Assembly: GCA_016210325.1 (NCBI GenBank)
Contig: JACQUK010000151.1
Span: forward strand, 1 to 51,281
Direction of reading: 5' to 3'
From: Chloroflexota bacterium
GTDB taxonomy: Bacteria > Chloroflexota > Dehalococcoidia > Lucifugimonadales > HRBIN23
Length of the DNA stretch: 51,281 nt
Shown: positions 1 to 51,281 of the stretch, piece by piece
Layout: every line of letters starts with the position of its first letter
Numbering within the stretch: the first letter of the stretch is position 1
The notes under the pieces: model-generated
Seen by the model: only the letters and a program-made list of their open reading frames with translations
Databases searched by the model: none
Told to the model about the DNA's origin: nothing
Program-made: the position numbers and the translations under genes

Positions 1-273
1 GCCCTGCACCCGCAATCCGCCACAGCGGGGTCGAACTCCCCCTCGAGGCCCGGTGCTTCAGCCTCTGCCCGATGATGGCGGTGATGAAGGCTGGGTCCTA
101 TGCGACGGGGCCCTGTGAACCCCGCCAGGCCCGGAAGGGAGCAACGGTTAGCAGTCTGCCTCGAGCGCCGTAGGGTTTCCTGGCCGGAGCCGCCACGTTG
201 TCGCACGCTGAGGGATCGCGGTCGACAGGGGGTGCACGGCCTCTCCTTTCTTATCTTCCAGGAAGGAGTACCT

Positions 274-23864: not shown

Positions 23865-25619
23865 TTGGCGAACACGTACGACGCTCTTGCCAGCGAAGCC
23901 CGGAAACGGTGGGAGGGCCTGGAAAAGGGGCCTCAGCCCTGGATTAGAGTGGGGACTGCCATCTGCGGGAAGGCCGCTGGAGCGCTGGAGACACTGGAGG
24001 CGCTCAAGGCAGAGCTAGGGCGCCGGGACATCAATGCAGTCATTAGCCAGGTGGGCTGCCTGGGCCTTTGCTTTGCCGAACCGCTGGTGGACATCACCAA
24101 GCCGGGTCACCCACGGGTTTTTCTCAAGAACGTCACGCCGGAGGTGGTGCCTGCTCTGGTAGAGTCCTACCTGGCCGGCGACCGGCCGGACCCTGGGCTG
24201 GCGCTGGGCACCCTGGGGGGCAACATCCCGGGGGTGCCCTCGTTGGAAGACCTGCCCCAGTGGAAGCGCCAGGTCAGGGTTGCCACCCGGAACTGCGGCA
24301 CCATTGACCCCGGCGACATCCACCACTACATCGCACATGGGGGCTTCGCCGGCCTGGCCCGGGCACTGACAGAGATGCAACCGCCCCAGGTGCTCCAGGA
24401 GGTGACCCAGTCCGGGCTGCGGGGCCGCGGTGGTGCCGCTTTCCCCACCGGCACCAAGTGGAGCTTCCTGGCCCGCTCCAATGTGTCACCCAAGTACATC
24501 CTGGTCAACTGCGAGGAGGGCGACCCCGGCGCCTTCAATGACAAGGGCATCCTGGAGAGCGACCCCTTCACCCTCATTGAGGGGTGTATCATCGCCGGCT
24601 ACGCCACCGGGGCTAGCCACGGCTACGTGTTCATCCGCCACGGCCACGAAGGGCCCATCCATCTGACGCGCCAGGCCATTGCCCAGGCCCGGAGCCTGGG
24701 ACTAGTAGGCCAGAACATCCTGGGCAGCAAGTTCAGCTTCGAGATGGACGTGGTGCTGACCGGCGAGTCCTACGTCTCCGGCGAGGAGACGGCGTTGATG
24801 GAGGCCATGGAGGGCAAGCGGGCCATGCCCCGCTCTCGCCCCCCCTTCCCGGCGGCGGTAGGCCTCTGGGGCAAGCCCAGCAACATCAACAATGTGAAGA
24901 CCATCTCCTATGTGCCGGAGATCATCGCCCGCGGCGCCAAGTGGTTTGCCGGCATTGGCACCGAGAAGAGCAAGGGCACTGCCATCATATGCTTCTCCGG
25001 CGCCATCAAGTACCCCGGCATGTACGAGGTACCCTTTGGCCTCACGATACGGCAGGTGGTGGAGGAGATCGGCGGGGGTGTCCCTGGTGGGAAACAGCTA
25101 AAGCTGCTGCAAACGGGAGGCCCGCTGGGGGGTGTCCTGGGCGCAGCCAAGCTGGACACGGTGCTGGACTTCGACGCCATGGCCTCGGCTGGCGCAATCC
25201 TGGGCTCCGGTGGCATCATTGTTGGGGACGAGACGGTCTGCGCCGTGGACCTGACACGGAACCTGGTGGCCTTCTGCCAGTTCGAGTCGTGCGGCAAGTG
25301 CTTCCCGTGCCGTTTGGGGATGACCCACCTGTTGGAGGTGCTGGAGCGCATTATCGCAGGGGAAGGCCGCCCGGCTGACCTGGAGCTCATGAAGGCCATA
25401 GGCCAGACTATGGCCGTCGGGTCGCTGTGTGGCCACGGACAGTTGGGCTTCAACCCCGTGCAATCAGGTCTCCAGGCCTTCGCCGAGGACTACAAGATGC
25501 ACCTGGAGCAGAAACGCTGCCCTACCGGCGCCTGCAACCGCCTATTCCACAAGCCTACACGTACCCGGCCTGTAGCATCAGGGGGATGGTATGCCCGACG
25601 AGATTACGTTCACCATTGA
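23865..25619 (+). CDS. NuoF/FdsB-like NAD(H)-binding FMN, [4Fe-4S] subunit with N-terminal thioredoxin-like domain
   Basis: GLRGRGGAAFPTGTKW (FMN/NADH site), EGDPGAF, and the 4Fe-4S motif ESCGKCFPCR...GSLCGHG. TTG start with GGAGGAG at 23851-23857. Confidence 0.85.
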   Translation: MANTYDALASEARKRWEGLEKGPQPWIRVGTAICGKAAGALETLEALKAELGRRDINAVISQVGCLGLCFAEPLVDITKPGHPRVFLKNVTPEVVPALVESYLAGDRPDPGLALGTLGGNIPGVPSLEDLPQWKRQVRVATRNCGTIDPGDIHHYIAHGGFAGLARALTEMQPPQVLQEVTQSGLRGRGGAAFPTGTKWSFLARSNVSPKYILVNCEEGDPGAFNDKGILESDPFTLIEGCIIAGYATGASHGYVFIRHGHEGPIHLTRQAIAQARSLGLVGQNILGSKFSFEMDVVLTGESYVSGEETALMEAMEGKRAMPRSRPPFPAAVGLWGKPSNINNVKTISYVPEIIARGAKWFAGIGTEKSKGTAIICFSGAIKYPGMYEVPFGLTIRQVVEEIGGGVPGGKQLKLLQTGGPLGGVLGAAKLDTVLDFDAMASAGAILGSGGIIVGDETVCAVDLTRNLVAFCQFESCGKCFPCRLGMTHLLEVLERIIAGEGRPADLELMKAIGQTMAVGSLCGHGQLGFNPVQSGLQAFAEDYKMHLEQKRCPTGACNRLFHKPTRTRPVASGGWYARRDYVHH

Positions 25620-28338
25620 CGGCGTCCAGGTCAAGGCCAAGCCAGGCCAGACCATTTTGCAAGCGGCCATTGACGCCGGCGTCTACATCCCATACCTCTG
25701 CTACTTCCCAGGCATGAAGCCCTACGGGGCCTGCCGTGCCTGTCTGGTGGAGGTCGAGGGCGGGCGGGGTGCACCCGCCTCGTGCACCACCCCGGTGGCG
25801 CCCAACATGGTGGTGAAGAGCGACACCCCCTTGGTCAAGGCGCTGCGCAAAGGCGTCCTGGAGCTACTGATGTCCGAGCACCCACACGGGTGTCTCTCCT
25901 GCCATCGCATCGAGCTATGCGGCCCCCAGGACATCTGCCTGCGACACGTGCGGGTGACCGACCGCTGTGTGGTCTGCCCCAAGAACGAGCGGTGCGAGCT
26001 CAAGGACACCGTTCGTCTGGTGGGCATCTCTATGGAGTTGCCCACCAGCTACAACTACCGCAACCTGCCCATTCACACCCAGGACCCCTTCTATGACCGG
26101 GACTACAACCTGTGTATCGTGTGCGCCCGCTGCGTCCGCGCCTGCGACGAGTTGCGTGGCGACGACGCTATTTGCATGGTGGAGCGCTCTGGGAAAGCCC
26201 TGGTGGGCACCTCCCGGGGGACGTCGCTGCTGGAATCGGGCTGCGAGTTCTGCGGTGCCTGCATTGACGTGTGCCCCGTGGGCGCCCTGGTGGAACGTGA
26301 CTACAAGTGGGAGAAGGCTGCCCATTCTGTCTACACGACATGCCCCAACTGCGCAGTGGGCTGCCAGATGAAGCTGGAGGTTGACCGCTGGCAGCGGGTC
26401 ATCCGCGCGGTGGGGGACTGGAACGGCGAAGCAAATCACGGCCAGCTCTGCTACCGGGGGAAGTTCGGACTGGACTTCGCCAACAAGGCCGAGCAGCTCC
26501 ACTACCCACTGGTCCGCCGCGATGGGCGCCTGGTCGAGGCCACCTGGGAGGAAGCGCTGGATGTCATTGCCCAGGGGCTTGCTCCCCACAAGGGCGAAGC
26601 CTATGCCCTCCTGGCCTCGCCTCGTAGCACCAACGAGGACGCCTATGTGGCCCAGAAGTTCGCCCGGACGGTGATGGGTTCCAACAGCGTAGATACATCT
26701 ACAGACAGCCGACCGGAGTTGGTGCTGGGGCTGGCGGACATGCTGGGTGTGCACGCGGCCACGGGCTCCACCTGGCAGTTGCTGGGGGCACGCTGCACCC
26801 TGGTGGTCAACAGCAACACCACCGAAGACCACAATGTGATGGCGGTGCCCATCAAGCAGGCCCATCGTAAGAACGGGCAGAAGGTCATTGTGGTGGACCC
26901 ACGAGAGGTGGAGCTGACCCGCTACGCGGACCTGTGGCTCCGGCCGCGGCCGGGGACCGAGGTGGCCTTGATCGGCGGCATTCTCCGTGCCCTCCTGGAC
27001 GAGAGCCTGGAAGACAAGGACTTCGTCTACAAGAGCTGCGAGGGCATTGAGGAGTTGACCCGTTCCTTGGCACATCTGGACCTGGTCCGGGTAGAGGGGG
27101 TCACCGGAGTACCCCAGGCGAGCATCCGTCAGGCGGCCCGCCTGTTTGCCAAGGAGCGGCCGGGGGCCATCCTCTATGCCCTGGACAACGTGGCGTCGGA
27201 AGACCGGCTGGCGCTGGTCCACGCCCTGGTAGACCTGGCCCTGCTCACCGGCAACGTTGGGAAGCCCTCGTCGGGCCTGTTTCCGCTGCGCAGTGGGACC
27301 AACGAGCAGGGCGCCTGGGATGTAGGCTGTGCGCCGTCCTTCCTGCCAGGCTACCGGCCGGTGGCCGATGCGGCTGCCCGCGACGAGGTGGGCAAGGCCT
27401 GGGGAGCCAGCCTGCCATCGGCTCCTGGCTTGGGCGTAAGGTCGGTGCTGGCGGGCCTCAGGGAAGGGCGTGTGAAAGCGGTCCAGGTGATCGGTGACAG
27501 CCCCACCTTCGATGCTGAGGCCCTGGATGCGCTGTCCCAGGCACAGTTCCTGGTAGTCCACGAGCATTTCCTCTCGGACCTGGCGAAGCGAGCGAATGTC
27601 GTGTTACCCCTGAGCACCTTTGCCCAGGCCCAGGGCAGCTACACCAGCCTGGAGCGCCGGGTGCAGCTTGTGCGACGGGCCCGCTCCGCTCGTGCTGAGG
27701 AGCAGCCCGCCTGGCGGGCACTGGCTCAGCTAGCACAGCGCATGGGGGTCAAGGGCTTCGAGTACCAGGACCCCGGTCAGGTATTCGGCGAACTGGCTGC
27801 GCTAATGCCGGCCTACCGTGGCCTTAGCCATGAGCGACTGAGCAAGGGAGGTGTCCAGTGGCCCTGCCCAGAGGAGGGGCACTCAGGCACCCCGGTCCTG
27901 CTGGCCGAGGGACTCGGTGCGGGCAAGGCCAAGCTGACCCCCGTAGAGTCACCCAAGGCACCCAGGGAGTCGCCCGCCGAATACCCGCTGCTCCTGGCAC
28001 CGGGGCGTGTGCTGGCCCAGACGCAGCGAGAGATGCAGGTGGTCTCTGTAGAAGGACTCAACCGCGTGCAGCGAGACGAGGTGGTTGAGCTCCACCCCAG
28101 CGATGCGGCTGCCCTTGGCGTGGCGGCAGGCGACATGCTGGAGGTGGCAGCCACCTCGGGCGCGCGCATCCGGGCTGTGGCATCCCTCACGGGGCAACTG
28201 CCGGGCGTGGTGAGCATCACCACGCTTTTTGGGCAGCTTGCAAGCCAGCTTCAGGCTAGCAGCGCGCCGGACCGGATGCTTCGGGTGCCTGGCCTGGAGG
28301 TAGTCCCGGTCAGGCTGGAGAAGGTAGCCGCAAGCTAA
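25591..28338 (+). CDS. NuoG/FdsA-like Fe-S subunit with molybdopterin-oxidoreductase-like domain lacking the catalytic Cys/Sec-His
   Basis: N-terminal 2Fe-2S ferredoxin fold (ITFTIDGVQV...CYFPG...CRAC), a His-ligated cluster HPHGCLSCH..C, and two 4Fe-4S motifs (CIVCARCVRAC, CEFCGACIDVCP). The MopB cluster is TTCPNCAVGC. At the FdhF 'VDxCARxC/UH' position the sequence reads VDTSTDSRPE. Confidence 0.8.
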   Translation: MPDEITFTIDGVQVKAKPGQTILQAAIDAGVYIPYLCYFPGMKPYGACRACLVEVEGGRGAPASCTTPVAPNMVVKSDTPLVKALRKGVLELLMSEHPHGCLSCHRIELCGPQDICLRHVRVTDRCVVCPKNERCELKDTVRLVGISMELPTSYNYRNLPIHTQDPFYDRDYNLCIVCARCVRACDELRGDDAICMVERSGKALVGTSRGTSLLESGCEFCGACIDVCPVGALVERDYKWEKAAHSVYTTCPNCAVGCQMKLEVDRWQRVIRAVGDWNGEANHGQLCYRGKFGLDFANKAEQLHYPLVRRDGRLVEATWEEALDVIAQGLAPHKGEAYALLASPRSTNEDAYVAQKFARTVMGSNSVDTSTDSRPELVLGLADMLGVHAATGSTWQLLGARCTLVVNSNTTEDHNVMAVPIKQAHRKNGQKVIVVDPREVELTRYADLWLRPRPGTEVALIGGILRALLDESLEDKDFVYKSCEGIEELTRSLAHLDLVRVEGVTGVPQASIRQAARLFAKERPGAILYALDNVASEDRLALVHALVDLALLTGNVGKPSSGLFPLRSGTNEQGAWDVGCAPSFLPGYRPVADAAARDEVGKAWGASLPSAPGLGVRSVLAGLREGRVKAVQVIGDSPTFDAEALDALSQAQFLVVHEHFLSDLAKRANVVLPLSTFAQAQGSYTSLERRVQLVRRARSARAEEQPAWRALAQLAQRMGVKGFEYQDPGQVFGELAALMPAYRGLSHERLSKGGVQWPCPEEGHSGTPVLLAEGLGAGKAKLTPVESPKAPRESPAEYPLLLAPGRVLAQTQREMQVVSVEGLNRVQRDEVVELHPSDAAALGVAAGDMLEVAATSGARIRAVASLTGQLPGVVSITTLFGQLASQLQASSAPDRMLRVPGLEVVPVRLEKVAAS

Positions 28339-28494: not shown

Positions 28495-28583
28495 AATCTA
28501 TGGAGCGAGCTACAGGACCCGGCCCGGGGGTTGAGGCTGTGTGAGAGTCCGCACACGCTTGAGTGTGGACCGAGGTGATAAGG

Positions 28584-30107
28584 ATGGTCCAAGCGCATAG
28601 CAGGAGGCCCGTGCCAAAGGTCGCAGCCCCTCGGATCCTGGCGCCGTGCGTCCGCGAGTGCCCGGCCAATATTGACGTGCCACGGTATATCGGCCTCATC
28701 GAGCAGGGCCGCTTCGCCGAGGCTGTCGCGGTGGTCCGCGAGCGCACACCCCTTCCCTCCATCTGTAGCCACGTCTGCTACCACCCGTGCGAAGCCTTCT
28801 GCCGCCGGGCCTCCCTTGACAGTACGGTCGCTATCAACGCGCTAAAGCGGGCTGCCACCGACCGCGACACCCAGCTCTGGCGGCGCAACTGGCAGACTAG
28901 CATTGCACCCAGCTCCGGCAAGCGGGTTGCCGTGATAGGTTCCGGCCCGGCCGGCCTCACCGCTGCCTACTACCTTGGCAAGGTGTGCGGCCACGCCGTT
29001 ACGGTGTTTGAGGCGTTGCCGCAGCCAGGCGGCCAGCTTCGTATTGGGATTCCAGCCTACCGCTTGCCCAGGAGCGTCCTGGAGGAGGAGATTGCGGTCA
29101 TTGCTGAGACCCGGGTGGGTATCCAGTGCAACTACCGGGTAGAAGCTCTGGACCAGCTCTTTGCTCAGGGCTTCAACGCCGTTTTCGTTGCTACAGGGGC
29201 CTGTCCGCCTAATGCGTTGGGGTGTCCGGGCGAGGAACTGCCTGGGGTGCTCACATGTGTTGACTTGCTGCGGGAGGCCAATCTGGGGGGCCGACCTACC
29301 ATTGGGGAGAAGGTCGCCGTGGTCGGCGGAGGCAACGTAGCCATTGACGGAGCGCGCGTTGCGCTGCGCCTGGGCGCCAAAGAGGTCGCTATTCTCTATC
29401 GCCGGACGCGACAAGAGATGCCAGCCCACGACTTTGAGGTCCACGAGGCGGAGGTAGAGGGCGTTGCCCTGCGCTTCCTTGCAGCCCCACTTCGCATTGA
29501 GCCTGGGAAGTCCAGGCGCTTGCGGGTGGTGCTGCAACAGATGCAGTTGGGAGAACCTGACAGCAGCGGGCGGCGCCGGCCGGTCCCCATCCCTGGCGAC
29601 GTTGCCACCGAGGAAGTAGACACCCTGCTGGTCGCTATTGGCCAGCACCCAGAGGCGCCGGCGTCCTGGGACCTGGAGCTCAACGGTGATGGCACCATTC
29701 GTGTAGACCCCGCCACCTGGATGACCTCCCGGCCGGGGGTCTTCGCTGGAGGCGATGCCGTTAGCGGGCCGGTGAACGTTGTGGAGGCCGTCAGCGCCGG
29801 CCGCCGCGCCGCTGAGGGCATAGACCGTCATCTGGGAGGCGATGGTAACATTGAGGAAGTCCTGGCGCCAACTGAGGCCCAGGCCCTGGACTTCCCAACA
29901 GTCGTGCATCCGGTGGGCAGAGAGGCCGAGCGCATGGTGGCTTTGGAGGCGCAGAAGCGGGTGAGCTCCTTTGCCGAAGTGGAGTTGGGCTACACTGAAC
30001 CCCAGGCCATCGAGGAGGCCCGCCGTTGCATCCGATGCGACCTGTGGCGCTACCGGGGTGTCCCTGCGGTGTGGCCGAAGGGCAAAAAAGTGGCACCTAT
30101 GGCCTAG
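28584..30107 (+). CDS. GltD/NfnB-like NAD(P)H-dependent FAD/Fe-S oxidoreductase
   Basis: CVRECPANIDVPRYI...ICSHVCYHPCEAFC (GltD Fe-S region), RVAVIGSGPAGLTAAYYL, VAVVGGGNVAIDGA, GVFAGGD. ATG 28584 is preferred over GTG 28563. Confidence 0.8.
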   Translation: MVQAHSRRPVPKVAAPRILAPCVRECPANIDVPRYIGLIEQGRFAEAVAVVRERTPLPSICSHVCYHPCEAFCRRASLDSTVAINALKRAATDRDTQLWRRNWQTSIAPSSGKRVAVIGSGPAGLTAAYYLGKVCGHAVTVFEALPQPGGQLRIGIPAYRLPRSVLEEEIAVIAETRVGIQCNYRVEALDQLFAQGFNAVFVATGACPPNALGCPGEELPGVLTCVDLLREANLGGRPTIGEKVAVVGGGNVAIDGARVALRLGAKEVAILYRRTRQEMPAHDFEVHEAEVEGVALRFLAAPLRIEPGKSRRLRVVLQQMQLGEPDSSGRRRPVPIPGDVATEEVDTLLVAIGQHPEAPASWDLELNGDGTIRVDPATWMTSRPGVFAGGDAVSGPVNVVEAVSAGRRAAEGIDRHLGGDGNIEEVLAPTEAQALDFPTVVHPVGREAERMVALEAQKRVSSFAEVELGYTEPQAIEEARRCIRCDLWRYRGVPAVWPKGKKVAPMA

Positions 30108-45353: not shown

Positions 45354-46181
45354 CTACACCGTTGCCAGGATGGCCAAGCCAAGGACTACCACACCTGTGC
45401 CAAGGCCCAGCCGGACGCCTTCGCGGTGGTGCAGGTTCCAGTGGGCCAGCCGGTTGAGGGCGGGCCGTGCTGAGACCGCAGCCAGAATGGCCACCAGCGG
45501 AACAATGAACATTACGTTGTACAAGACCAGGTAAAGATAGGACCGGACAAAGTTGTCCTGCAACGCCAGCATACTCAGGATGGCCAGGTACACCGCGCCG
45601 CTGCACGGCACGGTACACAGGCCCACCAGGATTCCCAGGCCAAACATGGCGGTGAGCGTGGCGCGCTGGCTCCACTCTTTGAGCAGGTTACCTACGAATG
45701 ACGGTGCCCTGAGACGCGGACCCCACCCGGGCAGCAGCGAGTCCTTCACCATCCAGAGCCCCAGGAACACCGAGGCCAGGGCCCCCAACCGAGCGCCCAC
45801 GTGGTTCTGGGTCAGGACGGTTGATGCCCGTAGTAGTCCGGTGCCCAGGGTTAGGTAGGTGGCGAAGATGGCCAGGACGAAAGCTCCCCCGAAGAGCAGC
45901 AACCTGGTGCGCATGGCACCTATGGGCGCTTCACCCACACCGCGGTACATGGAGGCCAGGGTTGCCGCGAACAAGAGGAGCACCGTGAAGGCACAGGGAT
46001 TGATGCCGTCCAGCAGCCCCGCGGTCACCACCGTGGGCAGCGCAACGGACGTTGATGACAGGGGGCCAGCGGGCCCTGAGTACAGGCTGGTAGGTGCCTT
46101 CAGGACACCGGCCGCGAGGCCAATGGTGAGGGCCAGGACGGCTGGAAACGCAACCGCGAAGATCAGTTTCCGGCGGGCCAC
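45354..46181 (-). CDS. ccdA: CcdA/DsbD-like thiol-disulfide electron transporter (cytochrome c biogenesis TM family)
   Basis: Polytopic, with the two conserved Cys-containing helices GINPCAFTVLL and LCTVPCSGAVYL. GTG start. Confidence 0.8.
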   Translation of the reverse strand: MARRKLIFAVAFPAVLALTIGLAAGVLKAPTSLYSGPAGPLSSTSVALPTVVTAGLLDGINPCAFTVLLLFAATLASMYRGVGEAPIGAMRTRLLLFGGAFVLAIFATYLTLGTGLLRASTVLTQNHVGARLGALASVFLGLWMVKDSLLPGWGPRLRAPSFVGNLLKEWSQRATLTAMFGLGILVGLCTVPCSGAVYLAILSMLALQDNFVRSYLYLVLYNVMFIVPLVAILAAVSARPALNRLAHWNLHHREGVRLGLGTGVVVLGLAILATV

Positions 46182-46183
46182 GC

Positions 46184-46663
46184 TTAGCTCCTGACTTCCA
46201 ACGTGCCCTGCATGTACGGGTTCTCTCGCCCACCGCAGCAGATGTCGCAGTAGAACTGGAACGTGCCGCTCTTGGTGGGCGTGAAGGTAAACTCCTGGGT
46301 CTTGAGCGGACCGACCTTCCAGTCGATCCCCAGCTCGTCACTGGCAAGCTGGTGCCAGCCACCGCCGTCGGTGTGGAACCCGTTGTCCCTGTTCACCAGG
46401 CGCAGTGTCACCGTCTCTCCCACCCTGGCCTCAACGCGGGAGGGGTCAAAGCCCCCCATAGAGAGCTGCACGGGGATGGCGCCTGGCGTGGCGCTGGTGC
46501 TAGACCTGAACGCGGGCCAGAGGAAGAATGCGGCCGCGGCCAGGACAACAACGGTGAGCGTGCCAAAGGCGATGATGCGTCCTCGCCCCGGAGACCCGCG
46601 GTGCCCTGTTTTCTTGCGCTGGCCCTTTTGCCGTGCTTTTGCGTGTGGTCTGGGTCTCGTCAT
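46184..46663 (-). CDS. Membrane-anchored cupredoxin-like domain protein
   Basis: Basic N-terminus plus a TM anchor, then the cupredoxin_1-like VGETVTLRLVNRDNGFH...GTFQFYCDICCGGRENPYMQGTLEV. Confidence 0.65.
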   Translation of the reverse strand: MTRPRPHAKARQKGQRKKTGHRGSPGRGRIIAFGTLTVVVLAAAAFFLWPAFRSSTSATPGAIPVQLSMGGFDPSRVEARVGETVTLRLVNRDNGFHTDGGGWHQLASDELGIDWKVGPLKTQEFTFTPTKSGTFQFYCDICCGGRENPYMQGTLEVRS

Positions 46664-46677
46664 GGTGCTTCTCGCTT

Positions 46678-46920
46678 TCAGTCCCCTGCCGTCGAGGGCT
46701 GGCCCGCCGCCTCGTCCATCCATGCTTTCCAGTCCAACTCCTTGGCGCGGAAACGCCAGCGCAGCGTTTTCACCGGCTCCGTGGGGTCATCGCTGCGGAC
46801 ATCCACAGCAAAAACGTGTTCCGAGTCCATTCCCTGGTGCATGCCCATAAAGAGCGGCATCTCCAGCACCGTGCTCTCTCCAGGTCTCAGGGTGGTCGCA
46901 CCGACCACCGCCTGGGGTGG
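46678..46920 (-). other. In-frame continuation of the DUF1573-like lipoprotein after TGA 46921-46923 (Sec/readthrough extension or pseudogene remnant)
   Basis: Same frame as 46921..47553. It encodes PPQAVVGATTLRPGESTVLEMPLF...HVFAVDVRSDDPTEPVKTLRWRF, which aligns with the second half of repeat 1 (...HRLAVHVQSDDPTRPVADLSMRF). Confidence 0.6.
46888..46914 (-). promoter_or_regulatory. SECIS-like stem-loop downstream of the in-frame UGA
   Basis: mRNA reads UGA-CCACCC-CAG-GC-GGUGGUC-GGUGC-GACCACC-CUG. It has a 7-bp perfect stem plus a 3-bp lower stem with a 2-nt bulge. The apical loop starts with GG, 21 nt after the U of UGA. Confidence 0.4.
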
Positions 46921-47553
46921 TCAGCATCCCTGTTCGACCCGCACCAGCGGCACCCCCTCCAGGACCAGCGGCGCATCGCCGTCGTTGCGCAGCGTGAACT
47001 GCTCGTACATGGGCCAGTCGTAGGGCACCACGCCCACGTCAATGGTCTCCTTGTCTACGCGCAGCCGGGGCCCACGCTCCTGCGATGTGGCGCCAGCCAC
47101 TACCGTAAATCGCATGGAGAGGTCAGCCACGGGCCTGGTGGGATCGTCTGACTGTACGTGCACTGCCAGGCGGTGGGGACCAAGCTCCTGGTGCTGGCCC
47201 AGCTTGATGGGCAGCACAGCCACTTTCCCAGAATCTATCTTGAGGTCTCTTGTGGCTGTGGATGCGCCTTCACATCCCTGTTGCGTCTCGACATCCACCG
47301 AGCTTATCTGAAGCGGCTTCTCGCCCCGGTTCACCACCAGGAACGTCTCTACTCCTTGCTGGTCCTGCGGCACAGTGCCCAGGTCTACCTGAAGCTTGTC
47401 AAAGGTGATGGCGGGAGCACCACGCACCAGGTCTTCGGCTCTCACGGACGGGGGAGTCGCCGATGGAGGCGGTCCGGATGTGCACGCGGCAGCCAGGGCC
47501 GCAAGGACAGCCACGGCCAAAGCGAGCAGGGCCTTGACCACACGACTCTTCAT
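46921..47553 (-). CDS. Tandem DUF1573-like lipoprotein, portion upstream of the in-frame TGA
   Basis: Lipobox LAAAC and a Pro-rich linker, followed by repeat 1 complete and repeat 2 interrupted at ...VRVEQGC-TGA. The ATG overlaps the lgt stop (ATGA). Confidence 0.7.
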   Translation of the reverse strand: MKSRVVKALLALAVAVLAALAAACTSGPPPSATPPSVRAEDLVRGAPAITFDKLQVDLGTVPQDQQGVETFLVVNRGEKPLQISSVDVETQQGCEGASTATRDLKIDSGKVAVLPIKLGQHQELGPHRLAVHVQSDDPTRPVADLSMRFTVVAGATSQERGPRLRVDKETIDVGVVPYDWPMYEQFTLRNDGDAPLVLEGVPLVRVEQGC

Positions 47554-48362
47554 CCTCTGCGCACCATCGCCCGCCCTTTGGACAGCGGTGCCTTGGTCAG
47601 GAGGGTGCCTCCGACCACCGCCAGCGCCAGAGCTACCAGCGCTATGACCTGGGCCTGCTGGAGGTCCCACAAGACGGCCGCCTCCTGACGGACAAAGGTC
47701 AGGACAAAGCGTCCCAGAGCGTAGCCGCCAACGTAGGCCAGGAAAAGCAGCCCTTGCGGCAGCGGCCGCCGACGGAGAAGCAGCAGCAGGCCCAGCAGCG
47801 CCAGGTCCCACAAGACCTCGTACACTGGGTAGGGGTGCGTTGGCACGCCCTTCAGCGCCTCCGGAATCATGGCACCTGGGTTAATGTAGGTGAACCCCCA
47901 CGGCATTCCTGTGGGGCCGCCGTAGGCGTCGCCATTGATGATGCACCCGATGCGCCCCAGCATCTGGCCGGCGATAAGGCCGATGGGTGTTGCATCGGCC
48001 AGCTTGGCAATGGGCAAGCCCTCCCGGTAGGCTACATAGGCTGCTGCCAGCCCGCCGACAAGGATTCCTCCCCAGATGGCCAGGCCGCCCTGATTGAGCA
48101 TGAGGATTTGGTATGGGTTGGCCAGGTAGTAGCTGAGCTTGTCTACGATATGAAAGAGGCGCGCACCCACCAGCCCGGCCAAGACCGACCACAGGGCCAC
48201 GTTGGTGACTTTCCCAGTGTCCAGCCCCCGGCGACGCGCCTCGCGCAGGACCAGCAGCACCGCTACCAAGACGCCGGCAGCAAAGGTCAGGCTGTACCAC
48301 CGCAGGGCGAACCCGCCCAGGTGGGCGATCACCGGGTCTACGTTGATGGTGATGCCGCTCAT
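47550..48362 (-). CDS. lgt: Prolipoprotein diacylglyceryl transferase
   Basis: LRWYSLTFAAG, GARLFH, GGLAIWGG, and GRIGCIINGD, typical Lgt motifs and topology. Confidence 0.9.
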   Translation of the reverse strand: MSGITINVDPVIAHLGGFALRWYSLTFAAGVLVAVLLVLREARRRGLDTGKVTNVALWSVLAGLVGARLFHIVDKLSYYLANPYQILMLNQGGLAIWGGILVGGLAAAYVAYREGLPIAKLADATPIGLIAGQMLGRIGCIINGDAYGGPTGMPWGFTYINPGAMIPEALKGVPTHPYPVYEVLWDLALLGLLLLLRRRPLPQGLLFLAYVGGYALGRFVLTFVRQEAAVLWDLQQAQVIALVALALAVVGGTLLTKAPLSKGRAMVRRG

Positions 48363-48414: not shown

Positions 48415-48756
48415 TCATGCTGGCCTTTCAGACAAAGCGGTCGGCGTATGCTGCAATGCGGACTCGCTGCGGACGTCGAAGCCCATCCGCCGGGCCGCAG
48501 GGTGGTACAGCGACACCGTGACCTCAGTCACCAGCTCGTAGGGCAGGAAGACCAGGTCCATGTCGTCGCAGGTCTCCGCGTCCCGGAAGGACTGGACGGC
48601 GAACCACGACTCCGCCAGGTGCACGATGTGGCACAGGTCCAGGGTCCTGCCGTTGGCCAGGTACAGATTGACCACCGGCACGGAGTCAGGCCGTCCGTGG
48701 CACTCTTTCGTCACTCGCTCCGGCAGAACGCTCCGATAGAACTCGGCGTCGAACAT
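48415..48756 (-). CDS. Hypothetical small cytoplasmic protein
   Basis: ORF trimmed to ATG 48754-48756 (MFDAEFYRS...). No motif recognised. Confidence 0.4.
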   Translation of the reverse strand: MFDAEFYRSVLPERVTKECHGRPDSVPVVNLYLANGRTLDLCHIVHLAESWFAVQSFRDAETCDDMDLVFLPYELVTEVTVSLYHPAARRMGFDVRSESALQHTPTALSERPA

Positions 48757-48785
48757 GCGGCTCCTTCTCGGCCCTGGCAGAGGAG

Positions 48786-49163
48786 CTACCACCCGCCCAT
48801 CATGCCCGAGCGCCCGCCCATCATACCGGACCGTCCACTCCCGCCCATCATGCCAGTGCCCGTTTGCCCCATCATGGAACCCTGTCCCTGGCCCCCCATG
48901 TGGGCGCCCATGTTGGCATGGTGTCCGTCGCTCATGTGCCCCTGCATGGCCTGCCAGTCCTCTTCGGTGATGGACCCCATGGCGTCACCCATCGCCTGGG
49001 TGTCGCCTGCCACACACGCCGCGTGCATGGCCGCATACGCGTCGGGCTTGGGCTCGTCCGCCTGCTTTGAGGGTGCAGCCCAGACCGGCAGGGAAAAGAG
49101 CACCCCTGCGAGCACAAAGGCCAAGCCTGTCCCCCCTAGCCACCAGAACCGGTACGTTTTCAT
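48786..49163 (-). CDS. Secreted Met/His/Gly-rich protein (putative Cu(I)-binding)
   Basis: AAGGAGG RBS and the signal peptide WWLGGTGLAFVLAGVLFSLPVWAAP. Followed by MHAAC, QAMQGHMSDGHHANMGAHMGG, and repeated GMMGG at the C-terminus. Confidence 0.6.
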   Translation of the reverse strand: MKTYRFWWLGGTGLAFVLAGVLFSLPVWAAPSKQADEPKPDAYAAMHAACVAGDTQAMGDAMGSITEEDWQAMQGHMSDGHHANMGAHMGGQGQGSMMGQTGTGMMGGSGRSGMMGGRSGMMGGW

Positions 49164-49363
49164 GCCTGCCTCCTTTGCATAGGGTTTCGTTCGTTGATAC
49201 GTCATGGTGTCGAGGCAACGTGCTGCGCCAGAGTAGTACCTCCTTGCTGAAAAGGGCGCCGTAATTAACCGCTCGTGGTGAGCCTGTCGAACCATGAGCG
49301 GAAGGCCGCTGGACCCGCTCGCCCTTCGAGAGCCTCAGGGTGAGCGGACAATGTCAACAGAAC

Positions 49364-49873
49364 CTAGAACTCCCATACGAACTCCCGCTGGGGCACGCTC
49401 GCTATCCCTTTCAACGTCAGCCTGGCTCTGGCCTTCTGCGTCTCCCACATCCCGTTGCTCTCCCCGGCAAAGGCCAGCACACCTTCTCGATGGTGGCTGT
49501 CCCCGTTGATGCTGATCCAGGCCGCCGCGTTGGTCTCCGCGCCATCGGGCTTGCTGAGCGTTGCAATGCGTGCCAGGTTGTACTGGGAAAGGTCCACCGA
49601 GTGGGTGTCCAGCTTCAGGTGGACCAGGGTGTAGCGGTCAGGAGGATAGTCTTTGAAGGTGTTCGCGGGCATTCCTTGAAGGTGCGACGGGGACCCCCAG
49701 ATGGCCTCAACCGTGACGCCGCCCTGGCCCCCGTCCACACGTGCCAGGCTCCCCGCCGTCTCTCCCTGTCCGGTATCCTGGGCTGCGCCTGACGACCCGC
49801 ACGCGATGGTGACCACTCCTACAACGACGACTGCGAAAACGGCGAGGACGCCCTTCCAGTGGACAGCGCTCAA
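49364..49873 (-). CDS. Hypothetical lipoprotein
   Basis: Lipobox VTIACG. The TTG start overlaps the upstream stop. The mature part is beta-rich and contains HLQGM and DSHHREG. Confidence 0.55.
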   Translation of the reverse strand: MSAVHWKGVLAVFAVVVVGVVTIACGSSGAAQDTGQGETAGSLARVDGGQGGVTVEAIWGSPSHLQGMPANTFKDYPPDRYTLVHLKLDTHSVDLSQYNLARIATLSKPDGAETNAAAWISINGDSHHREGVLAFAGESNGMWETQKARARLTLKGIASVPQREFVWEF

Positions 49874-50370
49874 GGCGGTGTTACCTCCGTTGCGATGTGT
49901 GATGCCATGGCGCGCAGGTGCGCCCGGCCCCCGAGCACTACTCTTACCATAATGGCGATGCCCATCGCGTTGACGACCAGCCCCGCCACCATGAATGGTA
50001 TGCGGTACTGATTGAGGAAGATGGCAGCGCCGGACAGACCCAAGACCGGCAGTACGTCAGCTACGTGGTGGAGGCAGCAGGCCACCATAGCCATGGATGA
50101 TGCACCAGTGCCCATCCCCGTTGTCGCCGTAGGCACGGCCAGACGGACCCCGTGGTGTACCACAAGGCGAAGGTAGCTATACAGGCCAATCTGGATGCCG
50201 AAGCCGGCCGCTATGGCGGCCACAAAGGCCCGGTCCTGGGAGAGAAGCTCCAGCGCGTGGTCTATGCCCTGGGCCCAGGTGACGGTCCCCAGGTACAGCA
50301 GTACCAGTGCTCCCGCGCCGGCCAGCCCCAGGATGAGGGGCAGGATACGTCTAACGGGGCTGGGCCTCAT
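49870..50370 (-). CDS. Four-TM membrane protein with intramembrane CCxHH motif
   Basis: ATG 50370 (MRPSPVRRILPLILGL...). About four hydrophobic helices, plus VVHHG and MAMVACCLHHVADVLP. Confidence 0.55.
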   Translation of the reverse strand: MRPSPVRRILPLILGLAGAGALVLLYLGTVTWAQGIDHALELLSQDRAFVAAIAAGFGIQIGLYSYLRLVVHHGVRLAVPTATTGMGTGASSMAMVACCLHHVADVLPVLGLSGAAIFLNQYRIPFMVAGLVVNAMGIAIMVRVVLGGRAHLRAMASHIATEVTPP

Positions 50371-50440
50371 GAATGCTAGCCCCGCGTTCCCCGGTGCGGC
50401 ATGGCACGCTGCTTGCTGGTCCATGCGTCCCGCTCCTTGC

Positions 50441-50770
50441 CTAGTGGTGGCACCCGCCACCATGCTGGTGCATGGGTGGCGGGGTGTTGGGCGCCTCGAT
50501 GGTGAAGCCGATGCCCAGTCCATCCTCCCGGTAGTCAATAAGGGCGCCCTCCAGGGCTTCTGCTAGGTCTGGCTCAACCAAGAGCCGCACCCCACCCGCC
50601 TGGACCACGGTGTCTTGTGGGGCCGGGGCATCTTCCAGGGCCAGCTTCCAGCCGTGAACGCACCCGTGGGGGCCAAGCACTGCGGCGATCCTCACCGAGG
50701 CGTTGGGCAGGCCGTTGGAGTCCAGTACCGCGTGGAGCTTTTCCTGGGCCTTAGGCGTAAGTGCCAGCAT
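50441..50770 (-). CDS. HesB/IscA-fold protein with atypical His-rich C-terminus
   Basis: LTPKAQEKLHAVL...VRIAAV...GCVHGWKLAL...GGVRLLVEPD...LEGALIDY matches the IscA/HesB fold. The canonical C-terminal CGCG motif is replaced by PPPMHQHGGGCHH. Confidence 0.6.
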   Translation of the reverse strand: MLALTPKAQEKLHAVLDSNGLPNASVRIAAVLGPHGCVHGWKLALEDAPAPQDTVVQAGGVRLLVEPDLAEALEGALIDYREDGLGIGFTIEAPNTPPPMHQHGGGCHH

Positions 50771-50829
50771 TCAGGCACCCTCCTTTCCATGTATCCTGCC
50801 ACTCTGTGACCGCCACGCGCTCTCCTTCC

Positions 50830-51281
50830 TTAATGACGCATGCCAGGCATCGAGGATGGCATAGGGGTGGGCGTGGCAGCCCCAACAGTTTCCTGGTAGT
50901 AGCCCCGGAACCCTTCGTACTGGATGATCTGGACCAGGCCTCCGGGCTCCACGCCGTCGTTTTCCGTGTGATGGAGTTCGTGGCAATGGAAGACCCAGTT
51001 CCCTGGGCTGTCGGCAATAAAGGCGATGTCGTAGGTTTCACCAGGGTTGATGGTGAGGGTGTTCATCCACTGCTGATTAGCCGGCGGCACCGGCTCGCCG
51101 TCCTTGGCGATGACCTTGAAGTCATGGCCGTGCAGGTGCATAGGGTGGAACAGGTTACTCAGGTTCACGATACGGACCCGGACCTTGTCTCCCTCCTTGA
51201 CGTTCCACGGCTCTACAGCGGGGTAGGCCTTGCCGTTGATGGTGAAGTAGTTGTAGTCCATGGCCATGCCCTGGCCTGCAC
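50830..51281 (-). CDS. Multicopper oxidase, C-terminal domain (partial, continues beyond window)
   Basis: HPMHLHGHDF (T2/T3 copper HxHxH) and HCHELHH (T1/T3 HCH motif). The N-terminus lies outside the window. Confidence 0.8.
   Translation of the reverse strand, partial: AGQGMAMDYNYFTINGKAYPAVEPWNVKEGDKVRVRIVNLSNLFHPMHLHGHDFKVIAKDGEPVPPANQQWMNTLTINPGETYDIAFIADSPGNWVFHCHELHHTENDGVEPGGLVQIIQYEGFRGYYQETVGAATPTPMPSSMPGMRH

Follow-up and report, generated by a model that had tools for sequence, protein, structure and literature searches.

The window analysed here, a stretch of 51,281 nt from a Chloroflexota bacterium (contig JACQUK010000151.1, assembly GCA_016210325.1), carries on its minus strand a lipoprotein gene with two DUF1573 repeats, the second of which is split by an in-frame TGA directly after a Cys codon. 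We consider it very probable that this UGA is decoded as selenocysteine (Sec) at residue 211 and that the gene encodes a genuine selenoprotein, as an earlier reading of the same DNA (hereafter the original prediction) had proposed. The frame comprises 292 codons, i.e. 210 sense codons, the TGA at 46921-46923, 80 further sense codons and a terminal TGA at 46678-46680, giving a product of 291 codons when the Sec-UGA is counted (…VEQGC-U-PPQAVVGATTLR around the Sec position). At the N-terminus, MKSRVVKALLALAVAVLAALAAAC, a signal peptide can be recognised whose lipobox Cys is at position 24; the stretch up to this residue reads MKSRVVKALLALAVAVLAALAAA-C24, and its end (…LAALAAA-C24) presumably agrees with the PROSITE lipoprotein pattern PS51257. 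By direct reading the product is a lipoprotein whose signal peptide ends in a lipobox Cys, with the gene for Lgt adjoining as context. An equivalent lipobox, [LV]-A-x-[AG]-C, is possessed by most orthologues and the Cys is missing in a few.

DUF1573 (PF07610) is matched in two stretches of the protein (E=4.9e-14, 52.6 bits against a Pfam cut-off of 26.1). When the second repeat is read across the TGA, it aligns with the first over 108 residues (37% identity, E=1e-19), as had been noticed from the sequence alone, and the TGA column falls opposite Glu95 of repeat 1, indicating that the stop lies inside an otherwise intact domain. Repeat 2 is the best-conserved part of the protein in the orthologue alignment, while the QGC Cys of repeat 1 is not kept among orthologues.

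A protein search retrieved 39 homologues (43-60% identity), the named ones all from metagenome-assembled genomes (MAGs) of Chloroflexi or Dehalococcoidia. Orthologues are carried by, among others, the assemblies GCA_016179845.1, GCA_030648205.1 and GCA_034433305.1. All 39 were called as proteins of 177-231 residues, and the public orthologues are accordingly annotated as truncations of about that length, the named ones as 'DUF1573' or 'hypothetical protein'. Each of the 16 homologues retrieved as called has …R-V/I/T-x-x-G-C as its C-terminus. The orthologue set, comprising 33 loci fetched from genome and metagenome collections (27 distinct; Chloroflexota/Dehalococcoidia MAGs; 43-65% protein identity), possesses G-C-TGA-P-[PG] at the same column in 33/33 loci with the preceding Cys invariant. 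The frame is open for at least 57 residues past the UGA in every locus with complete sequence, and the consensus of this part is PPxxVVG[ATS]TTLQPGxxTxLxLPLxMGMHxGMxxxHxFAxDxRSNDPxxPxxTxxWRF. Invariant residues downstream of the UGA are encoded by several synonymous codons; for instance, Gly+14, Gly+26 and Gly+30 use four codons each (entropy 1.7-1.9). Since the amino acids are kept while synonymous sites vary, translation of the downstream frame appears to be under purifying selection. The residues P-P-x-x between the UGA and the next GTG are conserved in frame as well, and the base after the UGA is C in all orthologue sequences. An alignment of orthologues had been suggested with the original prediction as a way of seeing which residue occupies this column; it is TGA in all 33 loci and, as described below, Cys in single-domain homologues.

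The predicted Sec insertion sequence (SECIS), a hairpin beginning 11 nt past the UGA, is present as originally described (CAG-GC-GGUGGUC-[GGUGC]-GACCACC-CUG). Counted from the U of the UGA, its core GGUGGUC-[NGUNC]-GACCACC occupies nt 15-33 across 24 distinct sequences, all of which have a 7-bp stem (6 bp in several), a 5-nt loop NGUNC, a distance of 18 nt from UGA to loop and a minimum free energy (MFE) of the core between -8.5 and -14.0 kcal/mol. The published model of bacterial SECIS elements (bSECIS) specifies a loop of 3-9 nt, an upper stem of 4-16 bp, a distance of 16-37 nt from the UGA, an MFE of at most -7.5 kcal/mol and a G within the first two positions of the apical loop (PMC13188914). 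All 24 distinct sequences fall within every one of these limits, and the loop residues G23-U24 are invariant. The SECIS of Escherichia coli fdhF has the same 11-nt spacer and the same G23/U24 positions.

The codons that form the hairpin are constrained beyond their coding meaning. Codons +5 to +9 (Val, Val, Gly, Ala/Thr/Ser, Thr) are all four-fold degenerate and each is represented by one codon throughout, including GGT, which elsewhere is a minority codon at Gly columns; among 20 further four-fold codons that are well conserved in the domain, not one shows such freezing (Fisher p=9.4e-5). The SECIS helix is paired in 96.4% of alignment cells. Compensatory changes are found in L028/L030 (U-A to C-G, altering both encoded amino acids) and in L001 (G-C to C-G), and one U-G wobble occurs in the stem in L013. 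The co-variation of the hairpin that was to be looked for is present at these pairs; overall it is sparse, because the stem hardly varies. The single-sequence fold of the window hairpin is unexceptional (66 nt, z=-0.46), so that its significance emerges only from the comparison of orthologues.

Homologues with Cys in place of Sec were discovered by a HMMER scan with the 80 residues that follow the UGA, which found longer proteins with …E-G-C-C-P-P ahead of the matching segment, and by a subsequent profile search. The latter yielded more than 436 single-domain homologues of about 155-175 aa with an N-terminal membrane helix, annotated as DUF1573 only and otherwise unnamed. The few that carry an organism name belong to Anaerolineae, including the cultured Aggregatilinea lenta. 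In 60/60 aligned Cys forms the residues G-C-C-P-P, P-G, M139, G142-M143, G145 and H147 are invariant. Sec211 is thus, by alignment, the counterpart of the second Cys in a vicinal Cys-Cys pair, which is the classic Sec/Cys relationship. The Cys forms share G-C-[C/U]-P-P, P-G, M-H-x-G-M-x-G-x-H and (T/S)NDP with the window protein, and they resemble the Sec-form loci in having cupredoxin and cytochrome c neighbours; they differ in possessing Cys for Sec, in having one domain only, and in carrying a membrane helix instead of a lipobox. Moreover, the Cys forms vary in the segment that follows the pair, and their genes have no SECIS hairpin (48-nt MFE -9 to -14 kcal/mol, compared with -17 to -26 in the Sec forms). 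This fits the idea that in the Sec forms it is the RNA element that imposes the peptide VVG[ATS]TT.

A few single-domain homologues differ at the Sec/Cys column, namely P0055 with Trp (GCWPP), P0051 with Arg (GCRPP) and P0059 with Gly (GCGPP). A single base change separates each of these residues from TGA as well as from TGC/TGT; the three proteins could have arisen by decay from Sec or Cys forms, or could reflect sequencing errors. A conserved gene cluster around the Cys form was observed in Aggregatilinea lenta (L038:6073-9925, BFCB01000003.1) and in L037. It comprises a PCYCGC/CYCXC protein, a CuA-like cupredoxin (Cupredoxin_1/COX2), the DUF1573 protein with Cys-Cys, a Fer4_5 membrane protein of 460 aa and a cupredoxin-cytochrome c fusion. 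One of these families, CYCXC (OS_HP4), is already known to include selenoproteins.

A further in-frame TGA was found in a lineage with a fused gene. In L005 (10001-11569), L031 and L032 the DUF1573 open reading frame runs on into a ResA/TlpA-like thioredoxin domain (L026 is cut short), and this domain contains a second TGA, in FWQSG-U-ATC (UxxC), followed by a C-terminal cytochrome c domain (CQECH). The fusion product of the L005 lineage would carry two Sec residues. When in-frame TGA codons with Cys/Sec motifs were scanned for, the window gave nothing but noise, and these three loci gave the TlpA-like UxxC. UxxC thiol:disulfide oxidoreductases are a known type of selenoprotein according to a 2026 review, and a hairpin with a GG loop follows about 17 nt past the second UGA. 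Read as a Sec codon, the second UGA is independent support for Sec decoding in these organisms, and the fusion places the DUF1573 domain and a thiol-reducing module on one polypeptide.

The Gly-Cys-Sec motif with a SECIS element, as put forward originally, is thus supported by the TGA in 33/33 loci, the constrained downstream frame, the Cys of the homologues (60/60) and the frozen hairpin. In the mechanism we propose, a SelB·GTP·Sec-tRNA(Sec) complex would bind the hairpin via the NGU apical loop, Sec would be inserted at codon 211, and translation would continue for 80 residues. Previous work agrees with such a capacity: selenoproteins are possessed by Chloroflexi (PMC1794560), tRNA-Sec has been reported from the same phylum (PMC5389517), for which an 8/4 form of this tRNA is on record, and Dehalococcoidia MAGs with 46-49 selenoproteins are known (PMC13326102).

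Several observations nevertheless weigh against Sec decoding. The genes selA, selB, selD and tRNA-Sec are absent from the 51-kb window and about 400 kb of flanks, although this is a small genome fraction and hence uninformative; the tRNA-Sec scan covered the window and 21 flanking loci, and a SelD tblastn against 406 kb of DNA with an E. coli query, which found nothing, is equally uninformative. The Sec machinery is the main source of the doubt that is left on Sec decoding. Covariation in the hairpin is low, and the covariation score of the whole structure is only modestly above that of shuffled alignments (31/500). A longer lower helix, pairing the P-P codons with the P-G codons, is paired in 65% of cells with a register that shifts between sequences, and was dropped from the model for these reasons. 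No Rfam family matches the hairpin (200 nt around the UGA, E<=10, noise only); bacterial SECIS elements are poorly covered by Rfam. Finally, RNAalifold favours a competing pairing of GCUGACC with GGUCGGU. This helix joins the Cys-UGA region GCUGACCRC to the 5' arm and SECIS loop, GYGGUCGGU (46903-46926 of the minus strand, alignment columns 2-10/19-27); it would sequester the UGA, and it is equally conserved and shows no compensatory changes. It was set aside, and the SECIS stem retained, because of the published geometry and the compensatory changes of the latter.

Other explanations of the split frame must be weighed against Sec decoding. There is a slim chance that the UGA is read through with a standard amino acid, by a near-cognate Trp or Cys tRNA aided by the hairpin, or that UGA has been reassigned in the lineage. 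The UGA-C present in all sequences is a weak termination context, W, R or G occupies the column in P0055, P0051 and P0059, and no Sec machinery was found in the window and flanks. A change of the code is contradicted by TGA as the ordinary stop of the selenoprotein gene, of Lgt and of orthologues, and non-Sec read-through accounts poorly for a hairpin of SelB-type geometry with an invariant G23-U24 and a stem 11 nt from the UGA, for the alignment with Cys, the classic partner of Sec, in homologues, and for a second UGA of one lineage in the UxxC thioredoxin motif of a known selenoprotein type. Slimmer still is the chance that the TGA is a true terminator, so that the gene would encode a 210-residue lipoprotein of 1.5 domains, the downstream frame would be translated separately, e.g. 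from the GTG at 46906-46908, the two pieces would reassemble, and the hairpin would act as a coupling or regulatory element. Gene callers do split the locus in this manner in every genome, the GTG stands in the hairpin everywhere except in the L028/L030 lineage (which has GCG as codon +5), and the conserved alternative RNAalifold pairing includes the UGA itself. However, the break would then fall in the middle of a single beta-sandwich domain, which more than 400 homologues encode unbroken with Cys at exactly that column, and P-P-x-x between UGA and GTG is kept in frame; the GTG is moreover buried in a stem of -8.5 to -14 kcal/mol, and no conserved Shine-Dalgarno sequence is apparent in the alignment (inspected by eye, no scan). 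That this contig carries a pseudogene, a recent nonsense mutation or a sequencing error has practically no probability left. Nothing speaks for it other than the mere presence of a stop codon inside a domain, whereas the same TGA recurs in 33 loci from many samples and assemblies at 43-65% identity, and the downstream frame is intact in all complete loci with the pattern of purifying selection. The conserved TGA and the constrained frame exclude these explanations together, and the very recent nonsense mutation named as the alternative in the original prediction is hereby refuted.

The genes around the candidate selenoprotein are listed with its features in Table 1.

Table 1. Positions in the window of the candidate selenoprotein gene, its features and its neighbours.
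Feature	Position	Strand	Remarks
Selenoprotein gene (candidate Sec-UGA)	46678..47553	-	Direct reading; orthologues read through likewise
Signal peptide and lipobox (…LAALAAA-C24)	47482..47553	-	Read from the translation
DUF1573 repeat 1	47104..47418	-	Pfam best stretch 49-141; no Sec
DUF1573 repeat 2 (GPRLRVDK…WRF)	46750..47073	-	Split by the Sec codon
Cys210 codon (TGC 46924-46926) and Sec211 codon (TGA 46921-46923)	46921..46926	-	Vicinal Cys-Sec pair, then Pro-Pro
Candidate SECIS element	46888..46914	-	CAG-GC-GGUGGUC-[GGUGC]-GACCACC-CUG
SECIS upper stem, 7 bp	46891-46909	-	nt 15-21/27-33 counted from U of UGA
SECIS apical loop GGUGC	46898-46902	-	
Possible 3-bp lower extension CAG/CUG of the SECIS hairpin	within 46888..46914	-	
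M-G-M-H-Q-G-M-x3-H motif, residues 236-246	46816..46848	-	Invariant Met/His; proposed metal ligands (putative role)
Lgt (prolipoprotein diacylglyceryl transferase)	47550..48362	-	Pfam LGT E=7.6e-59; immediately upstream
Cupredoxin-like protein	46184..46663	-	Pfam Cupredoxin_1 E=1.5e-13; NCBIfam NosZ C-terminal region, CopI below cut-off
CcdA/DsbD-like membrane protein	45354..46181	-	Two membrane-embedded 'PC' motifs, INPCAF and TVPCSG (by eye)
125-aa protein	48415-48792	-	No known family
Met/Gly-rich protein (…GSMMGQTGTGMMGGSGRSGMMGG…)	48786-49295	-	
Lipoprotein	49364-49873	-	No family match
222-aa membrane protein with MVACCLHH	49870-50538	-	
HesB/IscA-like protein ending GGGCHH	50441-50770	-	
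Partial multicopper oxidase	50830-51267	-	Cut by the contig end

The stop of Lgt and the ATG of the selenoprotein gene (47551-47553) overlap as ATGA (47550-47553), which suggests that the lipid transferase is translationally coupled to its likely substrate; Lgt adjoins the selenoprotein gene here and in seven other loci. On the other side, the cupredoxin-like gene begins 14 nt past the second stop of the selenoprotein gene. Its product resembles the CuA domain of NosZ/CoxB, with F-Y-C-D-I-C-C-G-G-R-E-N-P-Y-M replacing C-x3-C-x3-H-x2-M. It therefore seems to gain a vicinal Cys pair and to lose the His, and its metal site is possibly non-standard. The CcdA neighbour of the original prediction is CcdA/DsbD-like at best, since its family matches are weak and sub-threshold (SfLAP E=0.0015, ArsG E=8e-4; no DsbD match at E<=0.1); it is a possible route for reducing equivalents. 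Upstream of Lgt, the closely spaced or overlapping run of minus-strand genes from 48415 to 51267 looks like a copper island.

Similar surroundings are found at other orthologues. The neighbours in L005 are CueP, YtkA, CusB and CusA; L034 has CopA with HMA, YHS and a multicopper oxidase directly upstream; and L035 possesses CopA, Lgt, YHS, a cupredoxin, cytochrome c and glutaredoxin. Among 15 further loci we counted Lgt (6), cytochrome c (6), Cupredoxin_1 (4), P-type ATPase (4), HMA (3), Cu-oxidase (2) and DsbD_2 (2).

Elsewhere in the window, an uninterrupted 915-aa molybdopterin oxidoreductase of the NuoG/FdsA type is encoded at 25591-28338(+), beside Nuo51-like and Pyr_redox_2 subunits (23865-25619, 28563-30107). 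In L001 this NuoG/FdsA-type cluster recurs close to the orthologue, along with MutS and MutL (synteny). A search of the whole window with Rfam at the gathering threshold found only the RNA of the signal recognition particle (SRP), a bacterial large SRP RNA at 1-239(+) (RF01854, 138.8 bits) with its 5' end cut by the contig start.

An AlphaFold model of one Cys form is a beta-sandwich (pLDDT 87, above 94 in the domain), in which strand 106-111 is followed by the loop with the Cys pair, and M-H-E-G-M is in the loop 138-144. From the Ig-type topology, both loops are predicted to be at the same end of the sandwich. The invariant set of Cys, Cys/Sec, Met, Met and His is what is expected of a Cu(I) site, as in Met-rich copper sites. 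The conserved residues and the gene neighbourhoods hence suggest an extracytoplasmic lipoprotein that uses the Cys-Sec pair and the Met/His loop to relay or bind Cu(I), or electrons. The signal peptide would export the product, the co-transcribed Lgt would lipidate Cys24, and the protein would be anchored on the outer face of the membrane. In repeat 2, the Cys210-Sec211 loop and the M-G-M-H-x-G-M…H loop may together make up a site for a soft metal, of which Cu(I) is the most likely. The pair of thiol and selenol could close into a selenenylsulfide and would then need reduction, for which a TlpA-like thioredoxin (fused in one lineage) and the CcdA/DsbD-like membrane protein are candidates. Copper or electrons might be passed to the neighbouring CuA-like cupredoxin and to cytochrome c proteins; alternatively, the protein might serve copper detoxification with the multicopper oxidase and CopA.

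We regard the case for a copper role of any kind as finely balanced, and the specific chaperone model, with a lipid-anchored Ig-like domain holding Cu(I) on the Cys-Sec pair and the Met/His loop, as tentative. Points that tell against copper are that no copper genes occur near the orthologues L001 and L003 (long flanks), and that a Foldseek search with the Cys-form model recovered only generic PapD/ASH/HYDIN-type Ig-like domains and the uncharacterised 2qsv. Sequence searches of the PDB gave nothing useful, and no functional data were found in the literature on PCYCGC and DUF1573. The main functional rival is a purely redox role, in which the product is a true selenoprotein and the Cys-Sec pair a redox centre without metal, acting as an extracytoplasmic selenenylsulfide/selenol reductase or peroxidase fed by CcdA/TlpA. 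Most bacterial selenoproteins are indeed thiol-type oxidoreductases, in one lineage the protein is joined to a TlpA-like UxxC domain and cytochrome c, CcdA/DsbD-like genes are nearby, and a glutaredoxin gene lies near L035. We still consider it rather unlikely, because the invariant M-x-M-H-x-x-M…H consists of typical Cu(I) ligands and not of redox-relay residues, and copper genes dominate the neighbourhoods. The redox and copper roles are mutually compatible.

Recognition of these genes adds a selenoprotein subfamily, a clean example of a SECIS element from Chloroflexota and corrected gene models, and would tie selenium use to the copper/redox machinery of the cell envelope in groundwater bacteria of the Dehalococcoidia type. 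It also highlights a large uncharacterised G-C-C-P-P branch of DUF1573 (more than 400 members), whose ligand-like residues and cupredoxin/cytochrome c partners make the function of this domain testable. If the copper model is true, this would be the first Sec-based extracytoplasmic Cu(I) site, with a Sec-containing TlpA-like reductase of its own and a CcdA-like protein to keep it reduced, and it would serve the maturation of, or copper/electron exchange with, an unusual CuA-like cupredoxin-cytochrome c module widespread in Chloroflexota.

Among known systems, a functional analogy can be drawn with PCuAC/Sco, the periplasmic chaperones that deliver copper for CuA assembly, and the TlpA reductase, small exported proteins of beta-sandwich or thioredoxin fold with Met/His/Cys copper ligands. 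PCuAC/Sco genes stand beside CuA-type cupredoxins and depend on TlpA/CcdA in the Bradyrhizobium and Thermus systems. The likeness is one of function only: the window protein has no PCuAC/Sco match in Pfam or NCBIfam, the H(M)x10Mx21HxM and CxxxC motifs are missing from it, and the best fold matches of its family are PapD/ASH domains.

Animal thioredoxin reductase shares the Gly-Cys-Sec tripeptide, which can form an eight-membered selenenylsulfide ring. In that flavoenzyme the motif is a flexible C-terminal tail, whereas the pair in the window protein is internal (residues 210-211 of 291) with no flavin partner; a C-terminal GCUG of the thioredoxin reductase type is lacking. Of the resemblance to GCUG originally pointed out, the vicinal Cys-Sec pair stands, and the internal position, the Pro-Pro that follows and the Ig-like fold set the two proteins apart. 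Vicinal 'CU' selenoproteins linked to the biochemistry of metals and organometals have been predicted as well, namely MbdU, SaoC, SaoL, HgcA and form 2 of the CopZ family (PMC13188914). They share the adjacent Cys-Sec and a suspected soft-metal context with the window protein, but they belong to unrelated folds and families, none of them DUF1573 or an Ig-like lipoprotein.

Two reviews and the original paper name OS_HP2 as the sole catalogued DUF1573 selenoprotein; it has the motif U-G-C and comes from a delta-proteobacterial symbiont of Olavius (Zhang & Gladyshev 2007, PMC1976440; NF041425). Both belong to the DUF1573 superfamily (Ig-like PapD/ASH), have Sec in the same Cys-containing loop and were predicted by comparative genomics only. 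OS_HP2 is found in Desulfobacterota symbionts, compared with Chloroflexota here, and the window subfamily is distinguished by its tandem-domain lipoprotein architecture and the added M-x-M-H-x-x-M…H motif. Against NF041425 the window protein scores 39.4 bits, in the Sec-free repeat 1 only, and the Cys forms 30-34 bits; the cut-off is 100, and the window protein is hence not a member of OS_HP2. The position of Sec is different too. In an hhalign comparison of the Cys forms with canonical Bacteroidota DUF1573 (S-C-G-C-T-T-P; 97% probability), E-G-C-C-P-P is placed on C-G-C-T-T-P, so that the Cys of the pair corresponds to the second canonical Cys and Sec lies one residue on, opposite the canonical Thr. 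The Sec of OS_HP2 corresponds to the first Cys of the canonical C-G-C, as mapped from its listed motif and not aligned, and the Sec of the window protein would then be three residues further, in G-C-U-P-P instead of U-G-C. The TGA had been assigned originally to the C-x-C region of DUF1573 domains, which is only partly right, since Sec is outside the canonical C-x-C, one residue past its second Cys.

The same 2026 review treats a domain with a different Sec position or motif as a separate subfamily. No entry for the present one is found in the May-2026 catalogue, which lists 119 (sub)families of prokaryotic selenoproteins, or in release 20 of NCBIfam. The claim that a selenoprotein of this family would be new must therefore be narrowed, since OS_HP2 is already a DUF1573 selenoprotein, to the subfamily and its Sec position, which are absent from both collections. 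As predicted from the comparative evidence, the window protein and its orthologues form a Chloroflexota subfamily of selenoproteins that has not been catalogued and has Sec at a new position, in a superfamily that has so far had one predicted selenoprotein.

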